Shown piece by piece: positions 11,412-44,798 of a DNA stretch of 64,000 bases. The stretch is from Candidatus Komeilibacteria bacterium (GTDB taxonomy: Bacteria > Patescibacteriota > Patescibacteriia > UBA1558). Under the pieces are notes generated by a model. The model saw nothing but the letters and a program-made list of their open reading frames with translations. It was not told the DNA's origin and did not search any database. The number at the start of each line of letters is the position of its first letter. Positions within the stretch are counted from its first letter, which is position 1. Location of the stretch: NCBI GenBank assembly GCA_048538275.1, contig JBLYPW010000002.1, forward strand, positions 2,111-66,110. Direction: 5' to 3'. Made by a program: the position numbers and the translations under genes.

Positions 11412-14400
11412 ATGAAAAAAAGCACAACCTATTATATATCTATATTATTTACTGCCATTATTATTGTGGCGGGTTTAGTTTATCTTTTTCAGGCATATAA
11501 TGTATGGGCATATTTGAATCCTGGCGCTGATCCAATACATTATTGGAATATGGATGAAATGGACTACAATACTTGTCCTAGTGGTGGCGATGTTTGTGAT
11601 ATGACTGGTGTATATAATGGGACAGCTTATGGCAGTATTGGGTGGGTAGGAGAAGATGAGTGCGTTGCTGGCGGTTGTATGTATTTTGACGGAGTGGATG
11701 ATTATGTCAACTTTGGTGATATACCAAGTGTAGAAGGTGATTTGTCTATATCTTTTTGGATACGACCAACAGATATGACTTATCGTCAAAATCCTTTAGG
11801 TAAGGCATATTATGATGAATTTGATTTTACTTTAGAAATAGATGACGGTCTGCAGTATTATCATGGTGAGACATCAAGCTTTTATTATGGTGTTACAACA
11901 GATCCGGAATATTATTTGAGTAATAATCAATGGCAGCACATTGTTGTTACTAGAGACGTGAGCGCACGTACGGGGGTGTATTATGTTAATGGCGCAGCGA
12001 TTAAAACATTTAATTGGGATGCTAGTCGGGATCCAACTGCGGGGGGTGTAAATTTTCAATTTGGTAAGACTTATATTGCGAATGAGTATAAAGGTTATTT
12101 AGATGAAGTAAAAATTTACAATTATCAGAGAAATGCATCCCAGGTGGCTGCTGATTACAATGCCGGCATAGCCGGCCATACTCCTAAAATTGGGTCAGGA
12201 GTTGCTTTAGGATCAAATAATAATGCTGATCCGGGAGTACCTTATGCTTATTGGCAAATGGATGATAGCGCTGTGCCTGGCATAGCTTATGATAGCAGTG
12301 GTAATGGCTTTACTGGAATACCGGCTAATATTTCTTGGGAGCCGGGAAAGAGAGGTAATGCTGCATTATTTAATTCTTCCTCGGATAAAATTACTTTACC
12401 TTATACGTGGCAAGTTACGGATTCTACAAAGCCTTTTGGGTCTAAGAATAGCGACATGTCAATTAGCATGTGGATCTATCCAACCGTTGATAATGCCACC
12501 TGTTCTAATCATAACATCTGTAATATTATGTTTGCTAATGCCGGCACTGCTATAGATGATAATTTTGAAATGGGTTGGTATCAAGATACTGTAAATTTTT
12601 ATATGGAGTTAAGTGGAACAGATTATGAAGTTTTTGTTTCTTCAAATATGATAATACGTGAAAATGCTGAGTGGAGATATATTACCTTGACTAAGTCTTC
12701 AACCGCTGGCGTGAAAGTATATGTGAATGGTATTTTACAAGCCACCTACCCCACTTTAACAGGTACATTTAATGTTAACGGCGTTCAAGGAAATGATTTG
12801 ATGATCGGCCAAACAAATAATACGGGAGTGTATTATAGTGGCTATATTGATGATCTTAGAATTTATGATTATGCTATTGAGGAAAAGCAAATATTAAATG
12901 ATATGTATGCTGCTAAAGGCACGCATCCAATATTGCACTATGCTTTTGAAGAAAATGGTAATACAGCGGCTTCTGATAGCACTCTATCAGCTTTTCAAGG
13001 CACGATAAATGGTTCTCCAAACAGATCGCAGGATGGCGTTTTGGGCAGGGGGTTATATTTTGATGGGTCTGACGATAGAATTGCTATTAGTAATTGGGGT
13101 TATCCTGCGAGCTGGTCTGATTATTTTTCTATTTCAACATGGATAAATGTTCCGGCTTCAGAAACTTGGACCAATGGCTATAAGAGCGCTATTATGGGCA
13201 GAGGGGATGGTGCCGGTTCTCATGGGTTGATAAGACAAACTACCAATAATCAAGTGGCAATGTATGTTAGAGGCGATAATGGTGAAATATATGCGAGCGG
13301 CACTATAACACGGGACAGCTGGCATCATTTAGTGGGAATATGGGACGGGACACAAGTTGCGCTATATATAGATGGGGTATTAGAAAGTCAGACAGGCACA
13401 GCGAGAACTGGTTCGCCTGCTGCGAACACTTGGTATGTCAATGGTCCGGTGACCTTTGGTGGTAATATTGGCCAATATAATGAAGGTGGGCTAGATGAAT
13501 TAAAATTTTATAACTATGCATTAAGTTCTGATGATATTGCCAATGATTTTAATTATGGTTCGGCAGTTGTTTTGGGTGCCGACAAAACTAGTTCATCTTC
13601 TTGGGTTGATGGTGGGTTTGGTGGGGATCCGCTATTAGCTTATTGGAATTTTGAAGAGGGTAGTGGTAGTATAGCACAAGATATAAGCAGTAACGGTTAT
13701 TTGGGTACTTACGTGGGCTCTCCCCAGTATAGCTTGGGTAAGATAGGCTGGGGTTTAGAGTTTGATGGAGGCGATTATATTAATATCGCTGATAATTTAG
13801 GAGATCCAACTGCGATTACTATAGAGCTGTGGTTTAAAAAGTCCAACATCAATGCAGGATCGCAATACATGATGGATGCTAGAAATGGCGGCACTTGGTG
13901 GTGGTTACAGGATTATGTTGCCGGCGTTTGTACAGATAGCAATGGCAATATTTGTTTTGATGCAAGGGCTGAGATTCCATCTTCAGAACTTTCTAATAAT
14001 ACATGGTACCACGTGGCAGTTACTGACGACGCTAGTGCGGTTAAATTATATCTTGATGGCAGGTTGATAGCTACAGGCACTGGTGAAGATCCTGGTTTAG
14101 GGACAAATTTACGAATAGGCACACGATACACTGATGCTAATAGGTTTGTTGGCAGCATGGATGAAATTAAGATATTTAATTATGTTCGTTCTCAAGCACA
14201 AATAGCTTTTGATATGAATGGGGGTAAGCCAACAGCTCATTGGAATTTTGACGAGAATACTGGAACCTCAGCTTATGATAGATATGGTGGCTATACGGGG
14301 ACTTTAACGGGCGATGGTGTAACGTGGGTAGACGGAAAATTTGGTTATGCGCTTAATTTTGCTGGTTCTTCAGATTATATAAATATTGAACCTCTTGATA

Positions 14401-14876: not shown

Positions 14877-14925
14877 CTACTAACAACCCCCGGCGTTGGC
14901 AACCCCCGGCGTTGAATAAAAAAAC

Positions 14926-17900
14926 ATGGTAAAAATCAAGGAAAAATTGAAAAATAAAGCCAACCCCCGGCGTTGGCAACCCCCGGCGTTGGCAACCCCC
15001 GGCGTTGTGGCAAAGGCCGTCATCGCCGCTTTAATAGTGGTTGGTTTTCTTGGTGGTATTACCTGGGCGGCTGGTGGCTGGGGATTTGGTAGTGGCAGCA
15101 GTAGCACGACGGATGTTTCTGTCGGCACCTCAGCCGACAAAGGCTTGATTGGTTATTGGCCATTGGATAGTGCTAGTGAGAAAGTGGGGAGTGAATTGGT
15201 TATGAATGAAGATATGGAGTTAGATAGTAATTGGTCAAGTTATAATTCTCCTACAACTAATGAACAAAGTAATGAACAAGTGTATACTGGAACATATAGT
15301 CGAAAATTTATTGCAGATGCTTTAAACGAAGGTATACGGAGTGAAAATTTTAGTGTTATTGCTGGAAAAAAATATAGAGTGACTGCCTGGATATATTCAG
15401 TGAATAAATCTTGGGCTACTCTACGTGTTAGGCATGGCGACGGCACTGGATTTGCATATAATTATGCTAATACTGTCACTAATGGAGAATGGACTTTAAT
15501 AAAAGCCGATTACACAGAGACTATAAGTGGCTCTAACGCATATATTCATTTTGATAGTGGAGGATATTCTAGTGGCACTTGGTATGTTGACAATGTTAGC
15601 ATTAAAGAAATTAAAACAGCTGACGCAACGCCATACTCTCATCACGGTACTGTTTATGGCGCGACGCAGAATGATGATGATATGACCTTTGATGGTACGG
15701 ATGATTATATTAATGCTGGTACTGCTGATATGAATACTGACGAACTTACAATTTCATTTTGGGTTTATTCTGAAGATGCTGGTGATCAGGATCATCATAT
15801 TATATCAAACGCAGACAATACTGGTTGGTATCAGCCCAATGGTTTTGATATTGGGGATGGCTGGACAGCTGGCTATTATTTTTACTATTCATATATAGGT
15901 AACGCCCATATACAGCAACACCCGTCACATATGATCGGCGTTTGGTCGCATATTACTTTTGTTTATGCTAAAGGAGATTATATGAAGGGTTATATAAATG
16001 GTGATTATTTTGCACAATCAGCTAGCGTGGGCACAGAAACTATTAATGCCGCTAATACTTTATATATCGGCAGAGCTATTCGGTCAGGCAAGTTTAAGGG
16101 AAAGCTCAAGGACGTCCGTATCTACAATCGTGCCTTATCTGACACAGAAGTGGCTAGCTTGTATAATGGTGGTAAAAGTGCCAGTAAAAATTTGGTGATT
16201 GGTAGTAAAAGTAAAGGTTTGGTCGGAGAGTGGAAGCTGGATCAGGCGAGTGAAAAGGTGGGCGATGAAATGCATTCCAATTTTGACATGGAGTCGGGTA
16301 TTACTTCGTGGACATTTGATTCCAAAACAAATGGTTCTAGAGATAGCTATACTGCTGACTTTAAGTTTGGTTTAAAATCAGTTAGAATTAAAAATTCTAC
16401 GGTAGGACCGATTGCTTTTTGGCAAGCTAAGTCCGCTTCGGTGGGTGAGTTGTATAAAGTTGTTGTTTGGGCTAAAAATATAGATTCTCCGACGATTCCG
16501 TATTTTAGTTCCGCCGGCGCTACCTTTGTTAGTGGCGATACTTCTTTTGTTGATATCAGTACGACCGAATGGCAAAAATATGAAGGGATTTTTAAGGCAA
16601 CAGATACAACTATTAATATTTACATCAGAACTGCTGCAAATGCGACCCAGGGTTATTTTTTGGTTGATAATTATTCTTTGAAACAAATATACACTAAAGA
16701 TGCAACACCTTATAGTAATAACGGCGCTATTTACGGCGCTACTTATACTACCGATCGCCAGGGTCAAGCTAATAAGGCGATGAGTTTTGATGGAGTGGAT
16801 GATTATATAAATGCGGGTAATATTTCTCAAACAAATTTTGGTACCGGTGATTTTAGTATCAGCGCTTGGATAAATACTACGGATAGTCAATTTTATATTT
16901 TAGGCAAGCAAACCTGGGGAGTAGCAGAAGGTTTTTTTCTAGGCACAAAAGCTGGATATGATGGTGGGGATGATAATTATTTTTGGTTTGATACTGGTTA
17001 TAGTTCTGCTAATGCTAAAATTTTAACCTCACTAATTAATACTGGACAATGGGTCCATGTAGTTGCGATCAGAAGTAATGGAGTTGGTTATATTTATGTT
17101 AATAATGCTTTGGAAGTTACGGATAGTAGTAATTCCCAGAATGTTGACTCAAATGCTAGTCTGACTATAGGACGCCGGACGGGTAGCGGGTATTATTTGG
17201 ATGGTGATCTAAGCGACGTCCGTATCTACGATCGTGCTTTGTCAGCGGAAGAAATAGCTTCTTTGTATAATTCTTACAATCCAATAATATCTACCGGTAG
17301 TCTGCAAAAGGGTTTGGTTTTGGACATGCCGCTGGATAGTAAGCGGGAAAAGGTGGGTGGTGAAACTATTACTAATGGTGATGCGGAAATAGGCGATGTC
17401 ACGGGTTGGTCTGTCCAAGGGGGCGCGAGTAGAAGTTCTGTTATATCGCAATTACATAGCGGTACATATTCTCTACAGGTTACAAATTCTAATACTTCTG
17501 GGGGCTTACCCTATAATTTCATTTATCAGCAAGTTAATGGATTAACAATTGGAGCTACTTATAGAACTGTGGCTTGGGTTAAGGGAGCTACTAGCTCTGA
17601 CACTGGCTACATTGGTGTGTCGGACGATATTGTACAGGGAGAAGCATCTTATTATGGTTCGGATGGCGGTCCTAATCATTCTGATTGGACAAAATTAAGC
17701 GTTACCTTTGTGCCGGAAGCTACTACAGTTTATGTTCAATTATATTCTAACTCAGGTGCTAATATATCGTATTGGGACGATATTAGTTTAAAAGAAATCC
17801 AAACAGCTGACACTACCACTTATTCAAATCATGGAGTTGTTTATGGCGCAACGCAGAATAGTGATAGCATGAGTTTTGATGGTAGCACTAACTATATTGT

Positions 17901-18378
17901 TACATCTAAGAATAATATTGAAAATACATTTACTTTTTCTGCTTGGATAAATGGTGATACTAGTTTTGATGGGCAAATATTGGGCAGGTTGAATACTACT
18001 TGGTCATCATCATCTGTTGGAGATTTTATTTATTACGCAGGTACTTCAGCATGGGGATTATACGGATTTTTAGGAAGTGGTGTGAATGGTGGAGCCAATT
18101 CTTATTTAATAAGCAATTCATTATCTCCTAATACTTGGTATCATTTAGTTGCAACCTATGATGGAACTACGATTAAATATTATAAGGATGGAGTAGATAT
18201 TAATGATGATAAGGCTATGCTATTCAGTGATGATGCATCGTCATTAAATATTTGGATAGGAGCAAGACAGTATAGTGGTAGTATGGCACATTTTGAAGGA
18301 GATATAGCAAATGTGAAAATCTACAATCGTGCTTTATCGGCAGATGAGGTACAATTGTTGTATAATAAGGGGAGGTAA
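14926..18378 (+). CDS. Giant paralog 2 (1,150 aa): leader containing REP, TM anchor, then alternating CBM4/9-like and LamG-like modules.
   Basis: N-terminus MVKIKEKLKNKANPRRWQPPALATPGVV is encoded by three tandem REP 15-mers at 14961-15007, followed by a TM helix. The repeated K-E-I-K/Q-TADxTPYS-x-HG-x-VYGATQN linker occurs 3 times. DVRIYNRALSDTEV-type LamG ends are present. Segments such as WATLRVRHGDGTGF...WYVDNVSIKEI resemble CBM_4_9. Confidence 0.8.
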   Translation: MVKIKEKLKNKANPRRWQPPALATPGVVAKAVIAALIVVGFLGGITWAAGGWGFGSGSSSTTDVSVGTSADKGLIGYWPLDSASEKVGSELVMNEDMELDSNWSSYNSPTTNEQSNEQVYTGTYSRKFIADALNEGIRSENFSVIAGKKYRVTAWIYSVNKSWATLRVRHGDGTGFAYNYANTVTNGEWTLIKADYTETISGSNAYIHFDSGGYSSGTWYVDNVSIKEIKTADATPYSHHGTVYGATQNDDDMTFDGTDDYINAGTADMNTDELTISFWVYSEDAGDQDHHIISNADNTGWYQPNGFDIGDGWTAGYYFYYSYIGNAHIQQHPSHMIGVWSHITFVYAKGDYMKGYINGDYFAQSASVGTETINAANTLYIGRAIRSGKFKGKLKDVRIYNRALSDTEVASLYNGGKSASKNLVIGSKSKGLVGEWKLDQASEKVGDEMHSNFDMESGITSWTFDSKTNGSRDSYTADFKFGLKSVRIKNSTVGPIAFWQAKSASVGELYKVVVWAKNIDSPTIPYFSSAGATFVSGDTSFVDISTTEWQKYEGIFKATDTTINIYIRTAANATQGYFLVDNYSLKQIYTKDATPYSNNGAIYGATYTTDRQGQANKAMSFDGVDDYINAGNISQTNFGTGDFSISAWINTTDSQFYILGKQTWGVAEGFFLGTKAGYDGGDDNYFWFDTGYSSANAKILTSLINTGQWVHVVAIRSNGVGYIYVNNALEVTDSSNSQNVDSNASLTIGRRTGSGYYLDGDLSDVRIYDRALSAEEIASLYNSYNPIISTGSLQKGLVLDMPLDSKREKVGGETITNGDAEIGDVTGWSVQGGASRSSVISQLHSGTYSLQVTNSNTSGGLPYNFIYQQVNGLTIGATYRTVAWVKGATSSDTGYIGVSDDIVQGEASYYGSDGGPNHSDWTKLSVTFVPEATTVYVQLYSNSGANISYWDDISLKEIQTADTTTYSNHGVVYGATQNSDSMSFDGSTNYIVTSKNNIENTFTFSAWINGDTSFDGQILGRLNTTWSSSSVGDFIYYAGTSAWGLYGFLGSGVNGGANSYLISNSLSPNTWYHLVATYDGTTIKYYKDGVDINDDKAMLFSDDASSLNIWIGARQYSGSMAHFEGDIANVKIYNRALSADEVQLLYNKGR

Positions 18379-18600
18379 TTGTCTCATTCCCAGTTTCTCT
18401 TGATTCCGCCGTGGGGCGGACGAAGTGGAGAAATCTGTATTTGCCACTATAAAATATGTTCTTTTAATATACCCTTTATTGCTATTAGACTTCTCCGCTC
18501 GTCCGCACTTCGTTTGGACATCGGTCGAAGTGACTGTGAGAATATAGAAGATTGCTTCGTCCGCTTGCAGAGGCGGATCAGAGTATAATTCGTATGGTCC
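18379..18600. repeat. MITE-like palindromic element, family 3, copy 1.
   Basis: The core cttctccgctcgtccgcacttcgtttggacatcggtcgaagtgac and its partial inverse ggcggacgaagtggagaa are related to the copies at 33463-33600, 39345-39540 and 46590-46860. The 69-aa ORF at 18379-18588 lies inside it and is probably spurious. Confidence 0.6.
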
Positions 18601-18675
18601 GTTGTATTCGTATCTATATTATTCGTATTGTAGCATCATTAGCATTTTTTCGTATCATTCGTATTAAATTTTCGT

Positions 18676-33434: not shown

Positions 33435-33462
33435 TGAGGGATAATGGTTATAACATATCAAT

Positions 33463-36800: not shown

Positions 36801-39272
36801 ACGGCTACTGGTCTTGATAGTACAAATATTGGTTTAGGTAAATATGGCAGTGCATATAAATATACTACATGGGAAGAAAATCATATAGGAACGGCTAGTA
36901 GTATTTGTAATACTATCACCATGGAAGCCTGGATCTACCCATTATCTGATCCTGCTGAAAGATATACCATAGTATTTTATTCAGGTTCTCAAGCCGCTTA
37001 TTTAAGCTATGCTAATGGGCAAGCCCTTAATACTTATTGGGCCAGCAAATCTTCTCCTGGTTATCATACGTCTGGTGCAAGCACTGTACCAATTAATCAG
37101 TGGTCTCATGTAGCCGCAGTTTGGGATGATGCTGGTGTCAGCCTTTATGTTAATGGCATTGAAAAAAATAGAGTGTCAACAACGGGTGGCTCTTGTACGG
37201 GAACAAGTTTAACTTTAGCTGCGCAAAATAGTGGACGACAAATGAATGGCTATATTGATGATGTTCGGATTTATGATTATCCCCGTACCCAGGAACAAAT
37301 TCTTTGGGACATGTATGGTGATGAATCGCCACACCCCATTGCTTATTGGAATTTTGATGAGGGATATGGCAGTACAGTTAATGATAGTGGGCCCTTGGGG
37401 GCTGATGGTACCATTACGGGTGGAACTTGGACAACGGATGGTAAATTAGCTAATGGTGTATCTATCAATAGTACGGACTCTATTAGTTGTGGCACTCATT
37501 CAGGTTTAATATTCGGTAGCGCAGATCATTCTTTTAGTGCTTGGGTAAAGCCAAGCGCTTTAACTAATTCTAATAATTATATTGTTGCCATTGGTAATAA
37601 TGCAACTGGCGAGCAATCCGGATTTGGTGTGAAAAGTGATGGAGATTTATTTCACTCAGCCTATTCTTCTCCTTTGGTAAGTTTTGATACGTCAGTTTCT
37701 ACGGGCAATTGGTATCATTTAGCTTTGGTACACGATAGTGGCACGAGTTATGCTTATGTGAACGGTGAACAAGTTAGCGGTCAAGCTATAGCTATGAATA
37801 TTACTACTGGCAAATGTTATATAGGCGCTCATACAGCCGCTGGTTCAACATTTAATGACGGCATCTTGGATGAAGTAAAAATATTCAATTTTGCTTTATC
37901 CCCAGAACAAGTCCGTCAAGAATATAATCAAGGTAGTCAGGTATCATTAGGTAAGCAAAAAAATGATTCATCCACTTGGGATGATGGTGGTTTTGGTGGT
38001 GCGGCGCCAGTAGCATATTGGAATTTTGAAGAGGGTAGTGGTTCTACGGTTTATGACCGGTCTGTTAATAGTAATAATGGTACGATTACCAATGCCACTT
38101 ATACGCTGGGTAAGCCTGGTTGGGGTATGCAGTTTGATCCTACTAATGAATATGTTTCTATTCCAGACCATACTGCATTAAAGCCAACAGAGATTACAGT
38201 TGAGGCTTGGGTAAAGCCTGGCACTACCATGTCTAATAATAGGATTATTTCTAAAACAGAGGTTAGTGGTTATACAATGGGCATGGCGATAGATGGTACA
38301 GCTGATAGTAACTTTTATGTATATAGAGATGGTGGATATATTAATGCTGGTTGGGATGTTTCTAATTTTAGTTCAGGTACTTGGTATCATATGGTTGGTA
38401 CTTATGATGGACAATATATTAAATTTTATGTAAATGGAGATCTTAAAGAATCTGTGGATGCGATTGGTAATTATCCCATAACATATATTGCTAATAATCT
38501 TTGTATTGGAATTGAAGCTGGCGGTACTACTTGTACAGATACTCGTGATTTTGACGGTGTTATAGACGAAGTAAAAATATTTGACTACGCTCGTACCCAA
38601 GCACAAATTGCTTATGATTATAATGGTGGTAAGCCGGTCGGTTGGTGGCCACTTGATAACAATGAGGGCATAACCGCTATGGATATTTCCGGAAATGGTA
38701 ATCATGGAACATTGACCGATATGGATCCGGCCACTGATTGGCTGGATGGTACAAGTTGTCAATACGAAGGCTGTCTGGATTTTGATGGGATGGATGATTA
38801 TGTTGATATCTCTTCATACGATATTTCTACCCCAAGTTTTACAGCTTCCTTATGGTTTAATATGACTACGTTAGAGGATAGTGATTATAATATACTTTTA
38901 CAGCAAACTGATAGTGGTTCAGGAACGGGTAGAACATTCCTTGGGATACACACAACCACTAATGACATATTTACAAATATTGGTAATTCACAATTAACTT
39001 CAGGAATCATTCCAGATACAGGAACTTGGTATCACGCTGTAGTATCTTTTGACGGTTCTAATCTCAAATTATATGTTAATGGAAAGTTAGAAAATTCCAC
39101 TACTGATGTGTTGGAAAGCGCTAACGCTTCAATATTAATTGGGGCTGGCAAATCGTTTTCTGCTACTCAATTCTTTGATGGTAAACTAGACGATGTTAGA
39201 ATATATAATTATGATCTAACCGCTGATCAAGTAAAAGAAGTTATGAACCACGGAGCTGTTTATTTTAAATAA
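33807..39272 (+). CDS. Giant paralog 6 (1,821 aa): REP-encoded leader, TM anchor, DUF2341-like domain, many LamG-like modules. It ends in VMNHGAVYFK.
   Basis: Leader MLKLAKKFKINPQRWQPPAL, with the REP dimer at 33836-33867. DUF2341-like block EWWNEGWHYRDSYPITY...GKMQSDCADIRFTD...LYLYYGNPSA. Several blocks are about 93 percent identical at nucleotide level to paralog 4 (for example 36033-36270 versus 23521-23760). Confidence 0.8.
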   Translation: MLKLAKKFKINPQRWQPPALGILITAIIIVFAVVYFLRTPGVVQAEWWNEGWHYRDSYPITYSSSGSELTEYQVLVEDLDTATLIAAGKMQSDCADIRFTDVNSTVLNYSIVGATCNTSNTKIWVKMESIPAGGTTLYLYYGNPSASFYQSEENTFSYSTEKTVGYVLNDGSTAFDLISLADGNSITHNSTTLTLNKGESSALTTSTYLPVTAKKLFNMSTEEYDTIVPIGWAGTEFVYQNRNGTYETDFVMVSPWGTATVQIYIDGVQCGADRTVTSSGLKVTDCGGAASDVFRIVSDIPIIVNRSSSVNDPHPMHPADLGPWYGWDSSGDYIAAGPSGASYQWIDSGMSSVSSSSLGANAGTTLEAGGGSYYSGDTIKVWSTDYVMGASTAGDADGGDATTYLPNWEFGTITGSPYATDFVAVLSDQAVTCTTYNNSGATVNTQQLSSTNTQVYELGGTNFGIGSTSEYISGAWYVECDGPAMFVSQNVDDEQNMWSWPMMRQFSYPTPAVGSASGEEKGEAPILYWKFDEGVDNSCSGGGDVCDSTTTGDHRNLVGEPDWQSEDMCVSGKCLYFDGTNDYIDLGFGSGRNLATDPLSISMWVRPTSSSEDNMYIATVNGTNQRFYFAIQNGLWDMGIQNSTWSQGGAVTSADLNEWTHIAIVANGSAVRLYVNGNYSFQKTYTSYALAGNIAIASQGPAGGYKWRGSIDDVKIYNYARTDDQIKADYLAGLSGSSSGVGASLGSRQQDQSEGLVGYWQMDDAGVDAEGETISDSSGNGNSGTLYGDNATGDNGTGMDCTVTGKYGTGCSFDGVDDYVLSSSNIPAMSNFTISVWLQWDDYGTSNTQFVTGGAQEQFEIQTGGGSGTNGLRFIPNTHDASTLDVANAIPDANWHHYAVVYTNNDQVLAYRDGDEIGNKSHSVSSSTTASQFNIGRRSNNSYFFDGKIDNVKIYNTARTAEQIMRDYKTGPSPVAYYDFEEQSTSIAYDRSGTGVNLTATGLDSTNIGLGKYGSAYKYTTWEENHIGTASSICNTITMEAWIYPLSDPAERYTIVFYSGSQAAYLSYANGQALNTYWASKSSPGYHTSGASTVPINQWSHVAAVWDDAGVSLYVNGIEKNRVSTTGGSCTGTSLTLAAQNSGRQMNGYIDDVRIYDYPRTQEQILWDMYGDESPHPIAYWNFDEGYGSTVNDSGPLGADGTITGGTWTTDGKLANGVSINSTDSISCGTHSGLIFGSADHSFSAWVKPSALTNSNNYIVAIGNNATGEQSGFGVKSDGDLFHSAYSSPLVSFDTSVSTGNWYHLALVHDSGTSYAYVNGEQVSGQAIAMNITTGKCYIGAHTAAGSTFNDGILDEVKIFNFALSPEQVRQEYNQGSQVSLGKQKNDSSTWDDGGFGGAAPVAYWNFEEGSGSTVYDRSVNSNNGTITNATYTLGKPGWGMQFDPTNEYVSIPDHTALKPTEITVEAWVKPGTTMSNNRIISKTEVSGYTMGMAIDGTADSNFYVYRDGGYINAGWDVSNFSSGTWYHMVGTYDGQYIKFYVNGDLKESVDAIGNYPITYIANNLCIGIEAGGTTCTDTRDFDGVIDEVKIFDYARTQAQIAYDYNGGKPVGWWPLDNNEGITAMDISGNGNHGTLTDMDPATDWLDGTSCQYEGCLDFDGMDDYVDISSYDISTPSFTASLWFNMTTLEDSDYNILLQQTDSGSGTGRTFLGIHTTTNDIFTNIGNSQLTSGIIPDTGTWYHAVVSFDGSNLKLYVNGKLENSTTDVLESANASILIGAGKSFSATQFFDGKLDDVRIYNYDLTADQVKEVMNHGAVYFK

Positions 39273-39305
39273 TTATTTAATAAGCAGGTGATGAACCCCG
39301 TAAAG

Positions 39306-39540
39306 TAACGAAGTTACTAATGGGGGTGAGGGATAATGGTCATAACAAATCAATATACAATACTCCGTCACTTCGACCGATGTCCAAACGCAGTGCGGAC
39401 GAGTGGAGAAGTCTATAGAGTAGCCGTGTGATGAGAGACTTCTCCACTCGCTTTCGCTCGATCGAAGTGACGGATGGGTTATGATGACTCGGTCGAAGTG
39501 ACGAGGAGTATGGTTACTAGGGGTGGTAGAATTAAAAAGC
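39306..39540. repeat. Palindrome family 2 copy (39306-39336) followed by MITE-like family 3 copy 3 (39345-39540).
   Basis: ccccgtaaagtaacgaagttactaatggggg, then ccgtcacttcgaccgatgtccaaacgcagtgcggacgagtggagaagtctatagagtagccgtgtgatgagagacttctccactcgctttcgctcgatcgaagtgac. Confidence 0.7.
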
Positions 39541-39587
39541 CGTTCGGAGGAAGCTGCTTCCGACGAACGTGTTGATGAGGTAAAATT

Positions 39588-42500
39588 ATGCTAAAATTAG
39601 CCAAAAAATTTAAAATCAACCCCCGGCGTTGGCAACCCCCGGCGTTGATTATAATAACAGCGATTATTATTGTATTTGCTGTGGTTTATTTTCTCCGAAC
39701 ACCCGGTGTTGTACAGGCAGAATGGTGGAATGATGGGTGGCATTATCGGCAGACAATTTCTTTAACAAATTCAGGTGCGGCACAAACCAATACGCAGGTA
39801 AAAATACTTAGTGCAGAAGACTTAAGTTCTTTAGTAACAGCTGGCAAGCTGCAATCCGACCTTGACGACCTTAGGTTTACTGATGTTAATGGTAATATTC
39901 TTAAACATTGGATAGAAGATTCTACTAATTCAAGTGTAGATATTTGGGCCTTTATAGATTCTGTATCAGCATCTGGCGCTACTATCTATATGTATTATGG
40001 CAATCCTTCTGCTAGTGCTGATATAGTTGCTTTAGGCACGGCTGCATATCCGGGGATATCTTGTAAATCTGTATTACTGAGTGGTATTACTGCGGATGGT
40101 ATATATTATATTGATCCTACCGGACAAGAAACTACAGATAAGCTTCAAGCTTACTGTGATATGAACACTAGTAGTGGTGGCTGGACTTTGATTTTTCAAA
40201 GAAGAGGTGGTGAGAGTTATAATAATGCAGAATCTTGTGGCTCAAATCTTAATTCTTTTTTAAGAGCTAGCTGCGGGTCATTAACCTCTTTAAACTATGG
40301 AGATTCATATAGTATGGATATAGATTATGCGCCGATTGCTAATGAATACATGTTTAGACAATATGATTCCAACATGACTTTTGATAGTGGCGATGCTTTT
40401 ATTATTAATTCTGACAATTTATTATTTCCTAATATTACCACTAGTTTAAGTAATATTGCTGTGAACGCAATTTGTGATTATAATAATGCGAACTGCGATA
40501 CTACGGATACTTATTTTAAATATACTGGCGCCGGATATTTTAGCAGTACGTATTGTAATAATGGTTATACTACAGGGTATGGAGGTAATTATGGATATTG
40601 TCAGAATGGCATTTCAACAACTTACTACTCAAATGGACTTTTTGGTAATAGATTGGCGTATGATGAAACAAAACTATGGGCACACAATAATGGATCTGAT
40701 GAGTATATGGAAAGGGTTTTTGTGCGTGAATCTACTATTTCAACCACTGGCCACACAGTTACAGCAAGCACCCCCTCCTCCGAAGAAAAAGGTCCTGGCC
40801 CGATAGCCTATTGGAAATTTGATGAAGGTTATGGAACTACTGCCTATGATAGTAGTAGCAATAATAACAACGGTTCTATTTCTGGTGCTGCATGGCAGAC
40901 GGAAGATATGTGTGTGACTGGAAAATGTTTATTATATAACGGTACAGAATATGTAGGTTCTTTTAGTGATAATTTAAGTATGGGGTCAGAAGATTTTACA
41001 GTTTCAGCTTGGTTTAAAACAAATAGTGTTGTCACTTATGGTCAGTGGATTGTTGGTAATAAAGGTACTAGCACTAGTAATGATACAGGCTTTGAGTTAA
41101 TAATGGAGGGTGGTAGGCCTGGTATTTTTATTGCAGATGGTTCTAATAATATTAAATATCAGACTGCCAATTCATATGCGGATAATACTTGGCATTTTAT
41201 AACTGCTACGGTTAGTAGGGGTAGTAGCATTAAGCTTTATGTGGATGGCAAATTTATTTCAGAAAGGAGTGAAACGTTAGCGGGTAGTATTAATGTAAGT
41301 TATGGTTTATCTGTTGGTTTAAGACCTGGCGGAGGAAGTGAATTTAATGGTTTCATCGACGAAGTTAAAATTTACCCCTACGCCCGCACCGCTACTCAAA
41401 TCAAAGCCGATTATTTAGCGGGCCAAGTTGGCGTTGCTGAGGGCACAACCGCTGGTTTTGGTTCAGCAACCACTGGCAAGTCTTTATCAGATGGTCTGGT
41501 TGGTTATTGGAAGATGGATGAGGCAAGTTGGAATGGAACATCTGGAGAAGTTATAGACAGCTCTGGTAGTGGTAATAATGGTACGGCAGGAAACGAAGCA
41601 TCAATAACAGGTGGAAAGTTTGGTAATGGAGGTACTTTTGATGGAAGTAATGATTATATATCAATACCTGACAGCTCAGCTGATTTGAGTGGTGATTTTT
41701 CTGTTTCTATGTGGGTTCATCCCAATGACAATAGTCAAAATCCAAGATGGTTTGGTCTTGTGGATGGGTCAAATACTTTAGCAGTGGGGTACATGGATGA
41801 TGATACAGTCTATTTTAGATTTGGTGGTGATTCTATAATAACTGATTCAACTCTAACTTACGGAAACTGGTATTATGTGACTTTTGTTTATCAATCCAAC
41901 GCAAAGCAAATATATATAAACGGAGAAATAATGAATACAAGTTCAGGAGGCATTACTGGTGATTCAACATTATCTGCTATAGGTGCAGGTTATGCAACAA
42001 CAAGCTACACTGCTGATGGAGAAATTGACGAAGTAAGATTATATGAACGTGCCCTATCAGCCAAAGAAGTTCGTGATTTATACAATTGGGCGCCCGGGCC
42101 AGTTGCCTATTATAATTTTGATGAAAAAACAGGCACCACGGCTTATGATAAATCAGGCAATGGAAATAATGGCACTTTAACCAATATGGATGCAGCAACG
42201 GACTGGGTATCTGGTAAATATGGCAGTGCTTTAGATTTTGATGGAGTTAATGATTATGTCAACATACCCGATCCTGGAGCAAATTCTGTATTTGATGTTA
42301 CGCAAAATCTTACAATTTCCATGTGGATGAATAAAGCGGTGGATAGCGCCCACGGTAATTTGATAGAAAAGGGAGGTTCTTGGTGGATTCATCACGATTC
42401 TGCTTTTGAAGGGTATGCTGGCAATGGCATTCAGGGCGATGCTTTTCATGGTATTCCAGAATGGAATTATGATTTAGCTGAGAATACTTGGTATTATGTG

Positions 42501-44798
42501 AGTTATACTTATAATGGTGTTATAGAGAGGGGGTATATTAATGGATTTCAGGTGTGGCAAAATAGTAGAACAGGCAGTATTACTTTGAATGATAACCCAA
42601 TACAATTAGGGTCGCGGAGCGGATCGGCTGAAAAATATCAAGGTAAATTAGATGAAGTTAAAATCTACAACTACGCTCGTACTCATAAGCAAATTGTTGA
42701 AGATATGAATGCTGGACATCCAGCTGGTGGTAGTCCAGTGGCTTCTCAGTTGGGATATTGGAAATTTGATGAAGGTTATGGTGACACAGCGTATGATAGT
42801 GGTTTTGGTGGGAATGATGGAACTATAACAGGGGCTAGTTGGAGTGATGAAGGTAAAAATAATAAAGGTATTTTAATTAACAGCACAGACAGTATTAATT
42901 GTGGCACTGATTCAGCATTTGCCTTTGGTGATAATGCGCATTCGTTTACGGCCTGGGTAAAGCCCTCAGCCCTAACTAGTGCCTATAATTATATTGTTGC
43001 GGTAGGTAATAATACTGATGGTAATCAATCCGGATTTGGTATTAGGAGCAATGGTAATTTATTTCATTCAGCTTATAGCGCGCCATTAGTTAATTTTAAC
43101 ACTACAATTAGTATAGGCGATTGGTCTCATTTAGCCTTAATTTATGAGAATGGTATAAGTTATGTTTATGTTGATGGTGTTTTAGCTGATAGTCAAAATA
43201 TAATTATGAATGTAACCACGGGTAAGTGCTATATTGGTACTCATACTGGCGGCACTTCTACGTTTAATGATGGAATTTTAGACGAAGTTAAAATATATAA
43301 TTACGCCCTGACAGCTGATGAAGTATTAATAGACATGAACCAAGGTGCAAGCTCTGTGATGGGTAATTTAGGCACAGACAGTTCTGGTAATCCGGATAAT
43401 TCAGCTAGTCGGGCTTATTGTGTACCGGGTGATACTAGTACTTGTGATCCGCCGGTGGCTGAATGGAAATTTGATGAAAAAACAGGTACTAGTACTTATG
43501 ATACATCTGAAAATAATTACACTGGTACTATAACCAATGCTACTTGGACTAGTGGTAAATTAGGAGGAGGATTAGGTTTTAATGGAACGAATGCATATGT
43601 GGATTGTTCAGATATTAATTCGCCTTCAAGTAGTTCAAAGATTTCTATAGGTGCTTGGGTTAAGTGGGATACATTGACTGGCCATAGGGCTATATTTACA
43701 GATGGAGGAGTCACACGAGGTATTGAATTTGGTTTGTATAATGATGAGCTTCACTTAGGTGTAGAGAATAATGATAGCCATAGAAGTATTGGCTATGCTA
43801 CCTCAAATTTAACTACTGATCGTTGGTATAATGTTGCAGCGGTTGCTGATGGACCGAATGGTGATATGTTTATTTACGTTGATGGAGTTTTAGTTGCATC
43901 AGATACAGCGCTAACTACTTTTACTGATTATAATGGAAGTAATGGCACTACTGTTGGAAATGCTGGGACGCAGTCTCCATCGGCAAATAATAATTCTGGA
44001 GTTCAGTCATATTTTCATTCAGGAGATATTGATAATGTTCGTATTTATGACTATGCTCGTACGCCCGCTCAAATTGCTTGGGATTTTAATAGAGGCGCGC
44101 CGGTGGGCTGGTGGAAATTTGATGAATGTGAAGGCTCTACAGTTTATGATTGGGCGCCATCTGGCGATGGTTATCGCGGAAATGACGGTACGATTACTAT
44201 TGGTGGCACCGGTACACAAACAGCCGTTGGTACTTGCGAAACATCAGGCACAGCTTGGTATAATGGCGCGAGCGGCCAGATTAATTCATCTTTAAATTTT
44301 GATGGGACGGATGATTATGTTGATGTGCCAGCCAGCGCTATAGTTCCAGGAAACGAAATAGCAATTGCTTTTTGGGAAAAGACACCAGCGGAGAAACAAA
44401 GCAGTATGATTTGGTTTGAGGATGCTAATGGAAGAGTGGTTAATATACATTTATTTTACAGTAATGGTAATACTTACTGGGATGCCGGCGTAGATAGCGG
44501 GGGCTATGATAGAATATACAAAAGTAACCCCAGTTTAGTATTGGGTCAGTGGAATCACTGGGTATTTACTAAAAATGCTGCTACGGGAATAATGAAGATA
44601 TACTTAAATGGAAAGGAATGGCATAGCGACACTGGTAAAAATAAACCTATTACAACACCCAATAGTTCTGGCAAAATTGGTTCTAGTAATACACTTTTTT
44701 ATGAAGGTAAATTAGATGATATGCGTATCTATAATTATGCTTTGACTGCCGAACAGATCCAGCAAGTCATGAACCACGGAGCTGTGTATTTTAAATAA
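39588..44798 (+). CDS. Giant paralog 7 (1,736 aa): REP-encoded leader, TM anchor, DUF2341-like domain, fibrinogen-like domain and LamG-like modules. It ends in VMNHGAVYFK.
   Basis: Leader MLKLAKKFKINPRRWQPPALIIITAIIIVFAVVYFL, with the REP dimer at 39617-39647. Fibrinogen-like CKSVLLSGITADGIYYIDPTGQETTDKLQAYCDMNTSSGGWTLIFQRRGGESYNN at ~40050-40230. LamG ends DEVKIYPYARTATQI, DEVRLYERALSAKEV, DEVKIYNYARTHKQI, DDMRIYNYALTAEQI. Confidence 0.8.
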   Translation: MLKLAKKFKINPRRWQPPALIIITAIIIVFAVVYFLRTPGVVQAEWWNDGWHYRQTISLTNSGAAQTNTQVKILSAEDLSSLVTAGKLQSDLDDLRFTDVNGNILKHWIEDSTNSSVDIWAFIDSVSASGATIYMYYGNPSASADIVALGTAAYPGISCKSVLLSGITADGIYYIDPTGQETTDKLQAYCDMNTSSGGWTLIFQRRGGESYNNAESCGSNLNSFLRASCGSLTSLNYGDSYSMDIDYAPIANEYMFRQYDSNMTFDSGDAFIINSDNLLFPNITTSLSNIAVNAICDYNNANCDTTDTYFKYTGAGYFSSTYCNNGYTTGYGGNYGYCQNGISTTYYSNGLFGNRLAYDETKLWAHNNGSDEYMERVFVRESTISTTGHTVTASTPSSEEKGPGPIAYWKFDEGYGTTAYDSSSNNNNGSISGAAWQTEDMCVTGKCLLYNGTEYVGSFSDNLSMGSEDFTVSAWFKTNSVVTYGQWIVGNKGTSTSNDTGFELIMEGGRPGIFIADGSNNIKYQTANSYADNTWHFITATVSRGSSIKLYVDGKFISERSETLAGSINVSYGLSVGLRPGGGSEFNGFIDEVKIYPYARTATQIKADYLAGQVGVAEGTTAGFGSATTGKSLSDGLVGYWKMDEASWNGTSGEVIDSSGSGNNGTAGNEASITGGKFGNGGTFDGSNDYISIPDSSADLSGDFSVSMWVHPNDNSQNPRWFGLVDGSNTLAVGYMDDDTVYFRFGGDSIITDSTLTYGNWYYVTFVYQSNAKQIYINGEIMNTSSGGITGDSTLSAIGAGYATTSYTADGEIDEVRLYERALSAKEVRDLYNWAPGPVAYYNFDEKTGTTAYDKSGNGNNGTLTNMDAATDWVSGKYGSALDFDGVNDYVNIPDPGANSVFDVTQNLTISMWMNKAVDSAHGNLIEKGGSWWIHHDSAFEGYAGNGIQGDAFHGIPEWNYDLAENTWYYVSYTYNGVIERGYINGFQVWQNSRTGSITLNDNPIQLGSRSGSAEKYQGKLDEVKIYNYARTHKQIVEDMNAGHPAGGSPVASQLGYWKFDEGYGDTAYDSGFGGNDGTITGASWSDEGKNNKGILINSTDSINCGTDSAFAFGDNAHSFTAWVKPSALTSAYNYIVAVGNNTDGNQSGFGIRSNGNLFHSAYSAPLVNFNTTISIGDWSHLALIYENGISYVYVDGVLADSQNIIMNVTTGKCYIGTHTGGTSTFNDGILDEVKIYNYALTADEVLIDMNQGASSVMGNLGTDSSGNPDNSASRAYCVPGDTSTCDPPVAEWKFDEKTGTSTYDTSENNYTGTITNATWTSGKLGGGLGFNGTNAYVDCSDINSPSSSSKISIGAWVKWDTLTGHRAIFTDGGVTRGIEFGLYNDELHLGVENNDSHRSIGYATSNLTTDRWYNVAAVADGPNGDMFIYVDGVLVASDTALTTFTDYNGSNGTTVGNAGTQSPSANNNSGVQSYFHSGDIDNVRIYDYARTPAQIAWDFNRGAPVGWWKFDECEGSTVYDWAPSGDGYRGNDGTITIGGTGTQTAVGTCETSGTAWYNGASGQINSSLNFDGTDDYVDVPASAIVPGNEIAIAFWEKTPAEKQSSMIWFEDANGRVVNIHLFYSNGNTYWDAGVDSGGYDRIYKSNPSLVLGQWNHWVFTKNAATGIMKIYLNGKEWHSDTGKNKPITTPNSSGKIGSSNTLFYEGKLDDMRIYNYALTAEQIQQVMNHGAVYFK

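Follow-up and report, generated by a model that had tools for sequence, protein, structure and literature searches.

A tandem array of seven giant LamG-repeat proteins with REP-type palindromes at its gene boundaries in Candidatus Komeilibacteria

Organization of the locus

We analysed a 64-kb stretch of a metagenome-assembled genome (MAG) of Candidatus Komeilibacteria (CPR/Patescibacteria), referred to below as the window. The assignment is backed by GlyRS, whose sequence is 100% identical to that of a Komeilibacteria MAG protein. About 33 kb of the window consists of seven adjoining genes encoding huge proteins with export signals (P1 to P7, Table 1), which NCBI already names "LamG/DUF2341 domain-containing" (accessions MFW0837848-55). 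As a preliminary description had reported, all seven ORFs lie on one strand, here the plus strand, and encode 1,093–1,912 aa; all are intact and uninterrupted. The strict head-to-tail arrangement claimed there did not hold, because a RAYT-like ORF (RAYT, REP-associated tyrosine transposase) interrupts the series. The likely start codon of P4 lies 17 nt inside P3. Two paralogous membrane proteins stand at opposite ends of the array and bracket it, and GC content and GC skew run on without a break into the flanking housekeeping genes. The giant Gly-rich ORF upstream had no match in Pfam, NCBIfam or PHROG.

Three architectures were distinguished. P1 contains LamG modules only, with neither DUF2341 nor CBM; P2 and P3 alternate CBM4/9-like modules with LamG; and P4–P7 share the order signal peptide, DUF2341 beta-sandwich, one exchangeable head, EEKGPGP-type linker and five or six LamG modules. 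The head is a ~150-aa region without a named domain, a DUF1080-like domain, an unannotated ~365-aa domain or a fibrinogen-like lectin. The two subfamilies proposed earlier, P2/P3 and P4–P7, were recovered, with P1 falling in neither, and the KEIQTADTTP-type linkers ascribed to P2/P3 are visible in the translations.

Table 1. Features of the array and its borders (positions in the window; REP16 is the 16-nt unit described in the text)
Feature	Position	Strand	Description
Upstream giant Gly-rich repetitive protein	3-8258	+	>2750 aa; ORF runs past left window edge
169-aa membrane protein	10803-11312	+	paralog of the 180-aa protein at 45856-46398 (31-42% identity, E 1e-21 to 1e-23)
Exact 94-nt duplicate of 14898-14991	11291-11384	+	REP, AATAAAAAAAC, ATG leader, REP-REP
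Paralog 1	11412-14876	+	1154 aa; signal/TM segment, 5 LamG; MFW0837848.1 'LamG domain-containing protein'
REP16 cluster	14884-15007	+	two units in P1-P2 spacer, three in P2 leader
Paralog 2	14926-18378	+	1150 aa; K-rich leader, three in-frame REP units, long hydrophobic segment
Paralog 2 modules	within 14926-18378	+	3 x (CBM4/9-like + LamG)
Paralog 3	18676-21957	+	1093 aa; leader/TM without REP, Gly7 linker, 3 x (CBM4/9-like + LamG)
Paralog 4 ORF	21857-26860	+	1667 aa as open frame
Paralog 4, likely true start ATG 21941	21941-26860	+	about 1639 aa
Paralog 4 parts		+	signal peptide with 2 REP units, DUF2341 approx. 22073-22400, ~150-aa head, 6 LamG
Further REP16 clusters	21970-22000, 26865-26911, 27542-27572, 27703-27749, 33836-33866, 39617-39647		
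RAYT/IS200-like gene (REP-associated tyrosine transposase / IS200 Y1)	26963-27538	+	191 aa, between paralogs 4 and 5
Paralog 5	27674-33412	+	1912 aa; signal peptide with REP hairpin 27703-27749
Paralog 5 N-terminal part		+	DUF2341 approx. 27839-28154, then DUF1080-like ConA-type domain
Paralog 5 rest		+	LamG, FReD-like 29366-30142, 2 LamG, FReD-like 31439-32161, 2 LamG
34-nt GTAG-type hairpin repeat	33404-33437	+	CCCYGTAAAGTARYGAAGYTACTAACGGGG; directly 3' of P5 stop
Further copies of 34-nt repeat	39295-39328; 44816-44925		after P6; after P7
~107-nt hairpin element	33476-33582	.	terminal inverted repeats CCGTCACTTCGACCGA / TCGGTCGAAGTGACGG
Further copies of ~107-nt element	39366-39472; 46740-46850; 18410-18546		second copy inverted; third partial and inverted
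Paralog 6	33807-39272	+	1821 aa; signal peptide with 2 REP units, DUF2341 approx. 33942-34278
Paralog 6 rest		+	unannotated ~365-aa 'X' domain 34284-35384, then 6 LamG
Variant REP16 units	33919 and 39697		
Paralog 7	39588-44798	+	1736 aa; signal peptide with 2 REP units, DUF2341 approx. 39723-40037
Paralog 7 rest		+	FReD-like 40035-40805, then 6 LamG
Second RAYT-like gene	44942-45619	-	3' border of array

Domain content of the array proteins

The LamG, DUF2341 and fibrinogen-related calls of the preliminary description passed HMM tests in Pfam and NCBIfam. All seven proteins matched Laminin_G_3 (PF13385) in Pfam with E-values of 1e-65 to 1e-155 (221–513 bits; cut-off 27.6), and the best stretches spanned the full profile (1–151/151) in each. 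Using a module HMM built in this analysis, we counted 34 LamG modules (5, 3, 3, 6, 5, 6 and 6 in P1 to P7). The module ending D/E-x-V-K/R-I-Y-N-Y/R-A-L/R-S/T, which had been proposed as a shared feature, was present in 31 of them. DUF2341 (PF10102) scored 48.3, 69.9, 50.8 and 39.8 bits in P4, P5, P6 and P7, respectively, against a cut-off of 23.4.

The CBM4/9-like assignment of P2 and P3 was borne out directly for one segment, the third of P2, which scored 46.7 bits with CBM_4_9 (PF02018; cut-off 25.9). Segments P2a (25.4 bits) and P3b (17.3 bits) fell below this cut-off, and the remaining ones gave no match. Each of the six segments shows homology to the others (E 1e-12 to 1e-18); those of P3 and the other non-passing segments are CBM-like only by homology to P2 segments.

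P5 (two copies) and P7 matched Fibrinogen_C/COLFI in Pfam, bear the signature YCDM..GGGWT (C..YCDM.T.GGGWT) and exceeded the cut-off of 30 bits for NCBIfam NF040941 (GGGWT_bact), with 128.2 bits over two stretches in P5 and 51.3 bits in P7. The fibrinogen-related label thus stands for both proteins, with a Pfam (PF00147) alignment limited to about the first 50 profile positions (4–54 of 221). A PDB profile search with the FReD-like head gave an E-value of 1e-12.

Structure prediction, which had been suggested as a check on the individual modules, gave mixed results. The AF2 model of the FReD-like head was of low confidence (pLDDT 63, with residues 172–221 and 235–257 below 50); its top Foldseek matches in the PDB were all FReDs (E 1e-5, probability 1.0, TM 0.40–0.49). 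DUF2341 was modelled as a confident generic beta-sandwich (pLDDT ~90), with no convincing solved relative in the PDB, and the model of the P6 head (pLDDT <50) was too poor to use. At the sequence level, the P6 head recurs in 181 representative clusters, mostly at residues ~160–560 of 1,500–2,100-aa proteins.

Export signals

The leaders of P4–P7 consist of a K/R leader, a hydrophobic core, a P/G-containing c-region and AxA, followed directly by the conserved W-W/F-x-x-x-W-x-Y-R start of DUF2341. The same arrangement was found in at least 10 homologues from other CPR genomes and in at least 10 P6-like representatives. Sec signal peptides that can be cleaved are recognised by such a Pro/Gly-broken c-region with small residues at −3/−1, and judging from the conserved AxA|WW, those of P4–P7 are most likely cleavable and not anchors. 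The class III prepilin-type signal G|F/M-T-L-x-E (G|FTLxE) is absent from these leaders. In P2 and P3, a hydrophobic stretch of 22–24 residues is followed by a Gly-rich linker, which makes these two the only possible membrane anchors. The earlier term "signal-anchored" was therefore correct as to N-terminal export signals, doubtful as to anchors in P4–P7 and possibly right for P2/P3 only. No anchoring motif was seen on reading the C-terminal sequences.

REP units, RAYT genes and other repeats

The gene boundaries of the array are marked by a 16-nt unit, CAACCCCCGGCGTTG (REP16), which occurs 26 times at ≤1 mismatch, always between 11.3 and 39.7 kb. Half of the units (13 of 26) lie inside ORFs, namely in the P2, P4, P5, P6 and P7 leaders, the RAYT gene and the C-terminus of the flanking ORF O3. 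Read in three frames, REP16 contributes the leader segment "NPRRWQPPAL(ATPGVV)" of five paralogs; neither the homologues in the fetched related loci nor the P6-like representatives checked carry this segment. Many REP16 doublets are direct, not inverted. The REP doublet had no exact match among the metagenome contigs searched.

The RAYT-like ORF between P4 and P5 is flanked by inverted REP pairs (26865-26895 and 27542-27572, with perfect 15-nt arms) and holds a further pair in frame (27176-27206). Its translation shows HWH and Y..NP motifs and scored 28 bits with Pfam Y1_Tnp (cut-off 23) and 71.2 bits with NCBIfam REP_Tyr_transpos (cut-off 80). The second RAYT-like gene contains a 48-nt palindrome (45272-45319) and an 18-nt tandem repeat (45187-45281). 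Taken together, the sequences indicate that REP-type palindromes sit at the gene boundaries and that the adjoining RAYT-like genes serve them. Upstream of P1, the exact 94-nt duplicate of the P2 leader region forms a truncated leader mini-ORF (MVKIKEKLKNKANPRRWQPPALNK*).

Two further repeats were located between the genes. After P7, the 34-nt hairpin repeat is present in 3.2 tandem copies that abut the 3' end of the second RAYT gene. The ~107-nt hairpin element folds at −56 kcal/mol (z = −7.5). A search of these structured intergenic repeats for tRNA or Rfam RNA found none. A sigma-70 promoter scan gave no excess over the shuffled background, and terminator-like matches were mainly REP hairpins read on the minus strand.

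Divergence and codon usage of the paralogs

LamG module identity averages 26%, and in the gene bodies dS is saturated (>1.2) with dN/dS of 0.16–0.38. The paralogs are thus old and under purifying selection overall. The family had been called "diversifying", a term that fits it only as a description of old divergence; the tests run gave no sign of positive selection. The leader/5' regions are 93–98% identical, on bodies with dS>1.2. Homogenisation or exchange has affected the leaders and flanks at the 5' side of the paralogs as well as their 3' ends.

The preliminary description had also pointed to a DVRIYN-encoding motif conserved at wobble positions. This 17-mer, GACGTCCGTATCTACAA, is real: it is exact at 16111, 20851 and 21889 and has one mismatch at 17215, with six matches at ≤3 mismatches against 0.04 expected. 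Two of the four coordinates given before were correct (17215 and 20851), and two needed small shifts (16118 to 16111 and 21890 to 21889). Exact copies occur in P2 and P3 only. The motif is not peculiar to the locus, since the I-Y-N-Y strand that closes each LamG module is rich in C-ending codons, a bias also found in distant lineages, and the wobble conservation of the 17-mer is its extreme case. Avoidance of TATAAT (the −10 box) was rejected as the cause, as Y-N pairs outside the motif use TATAAT in 37 of 48 cases, as expected. Accurate codons at conserved sites were likewise rejected as a sufficient cause: the invariant Tyr of HMM column 143 is TAC in 2 of 34 modules, and the FDGxDDY motif in 0 of 17. 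The bias may point to a constraint on translation or recombination that LamG repeat proteins share.

Relatives in other genomes

Full-length relatives at ~30% identity were found in Parcubacteria, Shapirobacteria, Amesbacteria (three in tandem) and other Patescibacteria MAGs. In CPR and DPANN, a wide range of surface-type passenger domains occurs in fusion with DUF2341, and PF10102 is present in all 102 DUF2341 relatives. Homologues of the upstream giant ORF directly precede a DUF2341-LamG gene in other CPR genomes (loci L004-L007, L010 and L023). This recurrence in other CPR of the order signal peptide, DUF2341, head and LamG string, together with the upstream giant gene and tandem copies, marks the array proteins as putative adhesins of a known type. 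Prokaryotic homologues of the fibrinogen-like domain, at 48–56% identity, come from Paceibacterota, Aenigmarchaeota and Bdellovibrionales. Every array protein looked up was a singleton at 90% clustering, and P4 starting from ATG 21941 was absent from the collection. Among 65 IleRS-anchored related loci, no LamG gene and no REP16 was present, so the place of the array beside IleRS is not conserved.

Probable function and alternative readings

CPR genomes are roughly 1 Mb in size, and CPR bacteria are thought to be dependent on attachment to other cells. The array and the conserved upstream giant gene form a block of at least 42 kb for lectin-repeat proteins, which makes these proteins prime host-recognition candidates in Komeilibacteria. 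We consider it reasonably probable that the locus encodes a tandem family of Sec-exported, multivalent lectin-type proteins. By domain analogy, the array proteins probably serve in attachment and belong to a type described before in CPR: LamG/concanavalin proteins count as accepted candidates for adhesion in CPR/DPANN (PMC11310336, PMC12911398; for CPR also PMC11809585), Patescibacteria are on record as having large DUF2341 proteins (PMC11809585), and a LamG domain lies at the tip of haloarchaeal Tat-fimbriae (PMC11821415). Assignment to the Tat-fimbria tip protein TafC (NCBIfam NF052521) was rejected: the equivalog calls for at least 410 bits and a TafA-like N-terminal donor-strand domain, whereas scores were 99–204 bits and the match was limited to the LamG part (positions ~149–366 of 373).

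P4–P7 would be cut at AxA just before DUF2341, and the conserved DUF2341 end would hold or assemble the protein on the envelope of the cell. Extending outward, the variable heads and the strings of LamG modules would bind glycans or proteins, either on a partner cell or on polymers, and seven paralogs at about 26% module identity may provide a broad ligand range. Cleavage of the signal peptides would leave retention at the surface without an explanation, which counts against this reading. Adhesin is also not the sole reading, because LamG_3 modules occur in enzymes, toxins and phage virion proteins as well.

The CBM and ConA-type modules might instead bind environmental polysaccharides or glycoproteins for scavenging by an auxotrophic cell. 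We regard such nutrient capture as rather unlikely: Pfam/NCBIfam scans of the paralogs and their neighbours found neither a catalytic domain of the glycosidase or lyase type nor a transporter domain, and seven non-catalytic proteins of 1,100–1,900 aa would be costly for plain substrate capture. DUF2341 proteins encoded in archaeal type IV pilus (T4P) loci have been likened to PilY adhesins (PMC4858521), and one DUF2341 relative (P0040) has a prepilin N-terminal domain. The array proteins could accordingly be MshQ/PilY-like pilus-tip adhesins, with DUF2341 docking onto the pilus. The AxA Sec-type leaders, lacking a class III signal, and the absence of pilin, PilB/C/M-Q and prepilin peptidase among the ORFs scanned or read in the 64-kb window make this very unlikely.

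A structural envelope or matrix of the S-layer kind, a coat of jelly-rolls formed with the upstream giant Gly-rich protein, seems just as improbable as a pilus role. Pairing with the giant repetitive ORF is conserved across CPR lineages, the locus takes up a very large share of a small genome, and it is under purifying selection, all of which would suit a coat. Seven highly divergent paralogs with swappable lectin heads speak for ligand diversity more than for a lattice, and in the seven paralogs Pfam detected neither an S-layer homology (SLH) domain nor any other domain known from lattices. Least probable of all, and extremely so, is that these are receptor-binding proteins derived from a prophage or mobile element. 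The LamG modules do match PHROG families of virion structural proteins, LamG proteins are encoded by CPR phages (PMC11310336), and transposase-like genes and repeats lie within the locus. However, the PHROG matches are at the level of the LamG module only; four flanking ORFs tested (O1, an 809-aa ORF, O3 and O4) had no phage match; no relative was found in IMG/VR; base composition is continuous with that of the flanking genes; and the RAYTs are of the REP type, not phage integrases.

The array products resemble the LamG surface proteins of CPR/DPANN in their Laminin_G_3 family, signal peptide, large size and presumed role, and differ in that seven paralogs with 34 modules form one 33-kb block and, compared with the CPR homologues checked, in that REP sequence is read in frame inside leaders. 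P4–P7 share with MshQ/PilY-type (arCOG03508) proteins an N-terminal DUF2341 after the signal peptide, followed by LamG-type modules; they differ in the prepilin-type signal and T4P genes, neither of which was found here. The P5/P7 domains share the YCDxxxxGGGW signature with the fibrinogen-related domains (ficolins, tachylectin-5A, FIBCD1), and the top fold matches are FReDs; the distal ligand-binding part is divergent and poorly modelled. DUF2341, the unannotated ~365-aa head and the prokaryotic fibrinogen-like lectins supply testable domains; the current picture of CPR biology is refined, not altered.

The repeats bear comparison with the REP/REPIN-RAYT systems of Proteobacteria (PMC3116915, PMC5581495, PMC3733652). 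Both have many short GC-rich palindromes, a Y1/HUH RAYT-like gene between inverted copies of its own REPs, and GTAG- and CGTC-ended palindrome types. The present case differs in having a CPR bacterium as host, in that half of the units lie in ORFs and in frame, in its many direct doublets, and in a RAYT score that falls short of the NCBIfam equivalog cut-off. Rickettsia palindromic elements (RPEs) are similarly mobile palindromes tolerated, and translated, within genes of a reduced genome (PMC10969869). RPEs are ~150 bp long, whereas the present units are 16 nt and concentrated at the signal-peptide n/h junction of one paralog family, with one copy in a RAYT. The in-frame units would exemplify, outside Rickettsia, selfish palindromes turned protein-coding, here in export signals.

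Variable surface protein families of Mycoplasma (vsp/vlp) have conserved 5' ends. The array resembles them in its tandem paralogs with near-identical leaders and divergent bodies; unlike theirs, the bodies here are anciently diverged and not cassette copies. As to a phase-variation switch, no invertase, inverted gene, promoter homopolymer tract or other recognised switch was found, and tandem-repeat scans returned only the REP and intergenic repeats.

REP/RAYT might also act as portable gene-boundary cassettes (a 5' leader doublet and 3' hairpins), co-opted both as signal-peptide code and as a substrate for recombination of adhesin genes. We think this unlikely. If true, REP cassettes would mediate duplication, insertion and end-exchange, reshuffling the surface-protein repertoire of CPR. 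In its favour, P1 is bracketed by REP doublets, with the exact duplicate of the P2 leader upstream, and near-identical leaders sit on bodies with saturated dS, their REP segment being absent from the homologues checked.

Architecture of the seven paralogs

The array consists of seven giant ORFs on one strand, none interrupted as a pseudogene would be. The preliminary description called it head-to-tail, which holds for the strand but not for contiguity, as a RAYT/IS200-like ORF (RAYT, REP-associated tyrosine transposase) parts P4 from P5. Pfam profiles matched Laminin_G_3 in all seven paralogs (E 1e-65 to 1e-155; 3-6 stretches per protein), DUF2341 in P4-P7, CBM_4_9 in P2, and Fibrinogen_C/COLFI in P5 (two copies) and P7 (one), in agreement with the LamG, DUF2341 and fibrinogen-related content described before. 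An HMM made from the modules counted 34 LamG modules, and the ending motif previously described was present in 31 of them. The CBM4/9-like character of P2 and P3 was upheld in part: their six inter-LamG segments are homologous to one another (E 1e-12 to 1e-18), but only one exceeds the CBM_4_9 cut-off (25.9 bits) alone, a second scoring 25.4.

These proteins belong to a known kind, already annotated automatically in GenBank. By exact look-up, six of them are NCBI MFW0837848-50 and MFW0837853-55, with identical start codons and the names "LamG domain-containing" or "DUF2341 domain-containing protein"; in a set of ~15 billion proteins clustered at 90%, all six were singletons. P4 most likely starts at ATG 21941, with a 17-nt overlap with P3, and its exact sequence from this codon was absent from the same protein collection. 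GC content and GC skew of the array run on unbroken into the downstream housekeeping genes, for which a related JGI contig shows synteny. The GlyRS encoded in the window has 100% identity to a protein from a Candidatus Komeilibacteria MAG.

P4-P7 follow a common plan, in which a K-rich n-region leads into a hydrophobic core, then a Pro/Gly c-region and AxA, ahead of W-W/F-N/D-x-x-W-x-Y-R, the start of DUF2341; beyond this domain, one variable head leads through a (V/M)R(K/Q)...EEKG(P/E)(G/A)P linker to 5-6 LamG modules, and the string terminates in ...YN(Q/H/Y)G(L/A)(I/V)(H/Y/R)F(K/TP). The DUF2341 model was a confident beta-sandwich (pLDDT ~90), for which no convincing solved relative was found. 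The fibrinogen-like domains of P5 and P7 carry the C..YCDM.T.GGGWT signature and score above the NCBIfam NF040941 cut-off, the match being limited at sequence level to the first ~50 profile positions. As a profile they match tachylectin-5A, FIBCD1, tenascin and fibrinogen (E 1e-12 to 1e-9), and their prokaryotic homologues share 48-56% identity. An AF2 model of moderate confidence (pLDDT 63; distal part outside the model) had solely fibrinogen-related top PDB fold matches (E 1e-5, TM 0.40-0.49).

The P6 head had no Pfam or PDB matches and gave no confident structural model; a full HMMER scan recovered 181 representative clusters (E<=1e-30 for 69 of them). Homologues typically occupy residues ~160-560 of 1,500-2,100-aa proteins, nearly always right behind an N-terminal region of ~160 residues, and the P6-like representatives checked have the signal/AxA/WW start and LamG-type C-terminus of P6. 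Given this shared placement, start and C-terminus, the architecture is recurrent though unannotated. The head is a candidate new domain family.

All seven paralogs had been described as signal-anchored, which is doubtful for P4-P7. Their c-regions (NKPEPATA|W, NKPQSVEA|TW, RTPGVVQA|EW) conform to the -3/-1 rule, with AxA ahead of WW, and we infer that the leaders are cut by signal peptidase I. CPR relatives (Parcubacteria, Shapirobacteria, Amesbacteria and other MAGs) have the same small-x-small|W junction, as do the P6-like representatives checked. In P2 and P3 a Gly/Ser-rich linker comes after a stretch of 22-24 hydrophobic residues, and these two proteins may stay membrane-anchored. Reading by eye revealed no obvious sorting signal in any paralog C-terminus.

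Coordinates of features in the window and in related loci (L numbers, loci from other CPR or related genomes, in their own numbering)
Feature	Position	Strand	Remarks
Giant Gly-rich repetitive ORF	3-8258		>2750 aa, open at left window edge; upstream of array
Homologues of giant ORF	L004 178-4404; L005 178-6438; L010 54-8681		also in L006, L007, L023
Polytopic membrane protein	8325-10754		809 aa; between giant ORF and array; no family match
Small membrane protein pair	10803-11312; 45856-46398		169 and 180 aa, one at each side of array; 31-42% identity
P1	11412-14876	+	5 LamG, LamG-only; P1-P7 1,093-1,912 aa
P2	14926-18378	+	3 LamG
P3	18676-21957	+	3 LamG
P4	21857-26860	+	6 LamG; head, ~150-aa segment without assigned family
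P5	27674-33412	+	5 LamG; head, DUF1080/3-keto-disaccharide-hydrolase-like ConA domain (32% identity to relative P0012, which has PF06439); two extra fibrinogen-like domains among LamG modules
P6	33807-39272	+	6 LamG; head, ~365-aa unannotated domain at 34284-35384 (residues 160-526)
P7	39588-44798	+	6 LamG; head, fibrinogen-like domain
I-Y-N-Y strand examples	16111-16127; 24767-24799; 33326-33358
First RAYT-like gene	26963-27538	+	191 aa; flanking REP hairpins 26865-26895, 27542-27572; REP pair in frame 27176-27206
Second RAYT-like gene (RAYT2)	44942-45619	-	palindromes in frame 45272-45319
Third RAYT-like gene	57592-58023	+	palindromes 57501-57538, 58011-58048
RAYT homologue in L004	4401-5033		palindromes in frame 4555-4598
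34-nt GTAG-type hairpin	33404-33437; 39295-39328; 44816-44925		immediately 3' of P5, P6, P7 stops
~107-nt MITE-like hairpin	33476-33582; 39366-39472; 46740-46850 (inverted); 18410-18546 (partial, inverted)		16-nt CGTC-type terminal inverted repeats

REP units within signal peptides

The 16-nt palindromic unit REP, CAACCCCCGGCGTTG(G), was present in 26 copies with <=1 mismatch (0.7 expected), confined to array gene boundaries (11293-39711); half of them (13/26) lie within ORFs. Inverted pairs form perfect 15-bp hairpins on both sides of the first RAYT-like gene, which is the classical REP-RAYT arrangement. REP doublets or triplets start at codon 10 in P4-P7 and at codon 12 in P2, in frame throughout, and since 16 is no multiple of 3, consecutive units are read in three frames. 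The result is N-P-R-R-W / Q-P-P-A-L / A-T-P-G-V within the signal peptides, as part of the leader noted earlier. P5 has no other start codon 3' of its REP and the PGAP starts are identical, indicating that the leader REP is most likely translated.

The REP-encoded segment was absent from homologues in the related loci fetched and from the P6-like representatives checked. The hydrophobic core of P1 is homologous to the other leaders but without the segment, and the exact doublet occurred 0 times in the metagenome collection. These absences indicate a lineage-specific insertion between n- and h-regions, which would afterwards have spread across the paralogs. P1 has REP doublets on both sides, and ahead of it 11291-11384 is an exact 94-nt copy of 14898-14991 (REP, P2 start and leader, REP doublet), forming a 24-codon truncated leader ORF closed by a stop. 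Judged from the sequence, bracketing and duplicate are the footprint of a REP-associated rearrangement. The leader REP is a hairpin in P5 (-35 kcal/mol, 30 nt past the AUG) and has the direct, non-hairpin form in the other REP-bearing paralogs. Among known systems, REPIN/RAYT (PMC3116915, PMC5581495, PMC3733652) comes closest, and the in-frame translation has its nearest parallel in Rickettsia palindromic elements (PMC10969869). REP DNA read within signal peptides and marking rearrangement junctions may merit follow-up.

The 64 kb contain three RAYT-like genes, and every one has a palindrome family of its own. In RAYT2, an 18-nt tandem repeat (45187-45281) encodes (VGAKMA)n. The GTAG-type hairpins could be terminators or mRNA stabilisers; behind P7, 3.2 tandem copies abut RAYT2 (fold -45.6 kcal/mol, z = -7.3). 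Beside one ~107-nt element lie five tandem 31-nt units TCATCATAACCCCTCTGTCACTTCGACCGAG (46604-46758), whose copy number varies by site. The 169-aa membrane protein ends in a REP unit, read as ATPGVE and stop.

Codon bias and paralog evolution

A DVRIYN-encoding motif was said to be conserved across paralogs, wobble positions included. The 17-mer GACGTCCGTATCTACAA is a real repeated signal, found exactly at 20851 and with one mismatch at 17215, both as reported, but the copies placed at 16118 and 21890 begin at 16111 and 21889 (both exact), and exact copies are restricted to P2 and P3. Its codons are rare (GAC 17%, GTC 8%, CGT 20%, ATC 11%, TAC 13%), and it is the strongest case of a wider trend: across the 34 LamG modules, C-ending codons made up 31-53% at the I-Y-N-Y columns versus ~10% elsewhere. 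Tyr was encoded by TAC in 22/43 cases (51%) at this strand versus 59/577 (10%) elsewhere (p = 3e-10). Equally conserved columns lacked the bias (invariant Tyr column 143, TAC 2/34; FDGxDDY, 0/17). The enrichment recurred in LamG giants of other CPR and one Woesearchaeota genome (L004, L005, L007, L012; p 0.035 to 3e-4), and was not seen in three smaller samples. Avoidance of TATAAT was rejected on test as the cause. The bias may reflect translational accuracy or pacing at a strand critical for folding, or else GC-biased conversion where recombination joins sequences; as a pattern that spans lineages, it may merit follow-up.

The LamG modules share 26% identity on average, and a few positionally orthologous ones more (P4.L3-P6.L3, the third modules of P4 and P6, 68%; P6.L4-P7.L4 62%; P4.L2-P6.L2 51%). 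For such pairs dS was saturated (1.2-2.3) and dN/dS was 0.16-0.38; this marks the paralogs as old and functional, with purifying selection acting on them. P6 and P7 are 93-94% identical over nt 1-162, 80% over ~310 nt 5' of the genes and 91% at their 3' ends, and the P4/P7 leaders are 98.5% identical over 68 nt. Inside P4 and P6, the best-matching tract (316 nt, 87.7% identity) begins precisely at a LamG terminal motif and stops at the next FDGVDDY motif. Near-identical ends on diverged bodies, together with these tract limits, suggest that conserved junctions have undergone gene conversion or exchange.

Relatives, neighbours and possible function

Full-length relatives occur in many CPR MAGs at ~25-31% identity, two or three in tandem in L005 and L007, and proteins of CPR and DPANN combine DUF2341 with many passenger domains. 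As LamG genes were absent from 65/65 loci anchored on IleRS homologues, the array position is lineage-specific. The giant Gly-rich ORF gave no match in a family search, and its homologues lie directly 5' of a DUF2341-LamG gene in six of the related loci, which makes it a conserved neighbour across CPR lineages, with the RAYT homologue placed between the two in L004. The small membrane protein pair received no family assignment; variants with >=90% identity occur on short ENA and Logan contigs.

The best-supported reading, in which function is inferred, is that P1-P7 are a family of multivalent, lectin-type exported proteins. The conserved DUF2341 end would lie nearest the cell; glycans or proteins, either of a partner cell or of polymers, would be the ligands of the variable heads and LamG strings. 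This reading agrees with published proposals on LamG/concanavalin proteins in CPR and DPANN organisms (PMC11310336, PMC12911398, PMC11809585), and the LamG tip of haloarchaeal Tat-fimbriae offers an analogy (PMC11821415). The adhesin or carbohydrate-binder proposal of the preliminary description is partly supported. Rival readings are the capture of polymers for nutrition and the formation of an envelope lattice. Pilus-tip adhesins are a further rival; no T4P gene was found among the window ORFs scanned or read, and the leaders show no prepilin signal. Phage origin has no support, and no phage link of the array was found.

GT-C-like or O-antigen-ligase-like membrane proteins, called by eye from N-terminal sequences, lie near homologous genes in L001, L006, L010 and L023, a hint of glycosylation of the LamG giants. 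Between the 3' repeats of the array and IleRS, a small ORF (47057-47290; MAKIKIGQLAKRVGCLPSTIHFYTQEGLL...) resembles by eye a MerR-type HTH regulator. TTCGTAT occurs six times in a ~95-nt stretch (18585-18678) that lies immediately 5' of the P3 start codon and reaches into it, and a GC-rich 14-nt repeat, CCGGCCTCCGGCTC, lies in 2.9 copies (33730-33775) inside an insertion 5' of P6; both are possible regulatory sites. A 12-codon ORF (27635-27673; MLKGFLTWLFII, then stop) with GAGGG upstream ends one base ahead of the P5 start codon, which may reflect chance or translational coupling.
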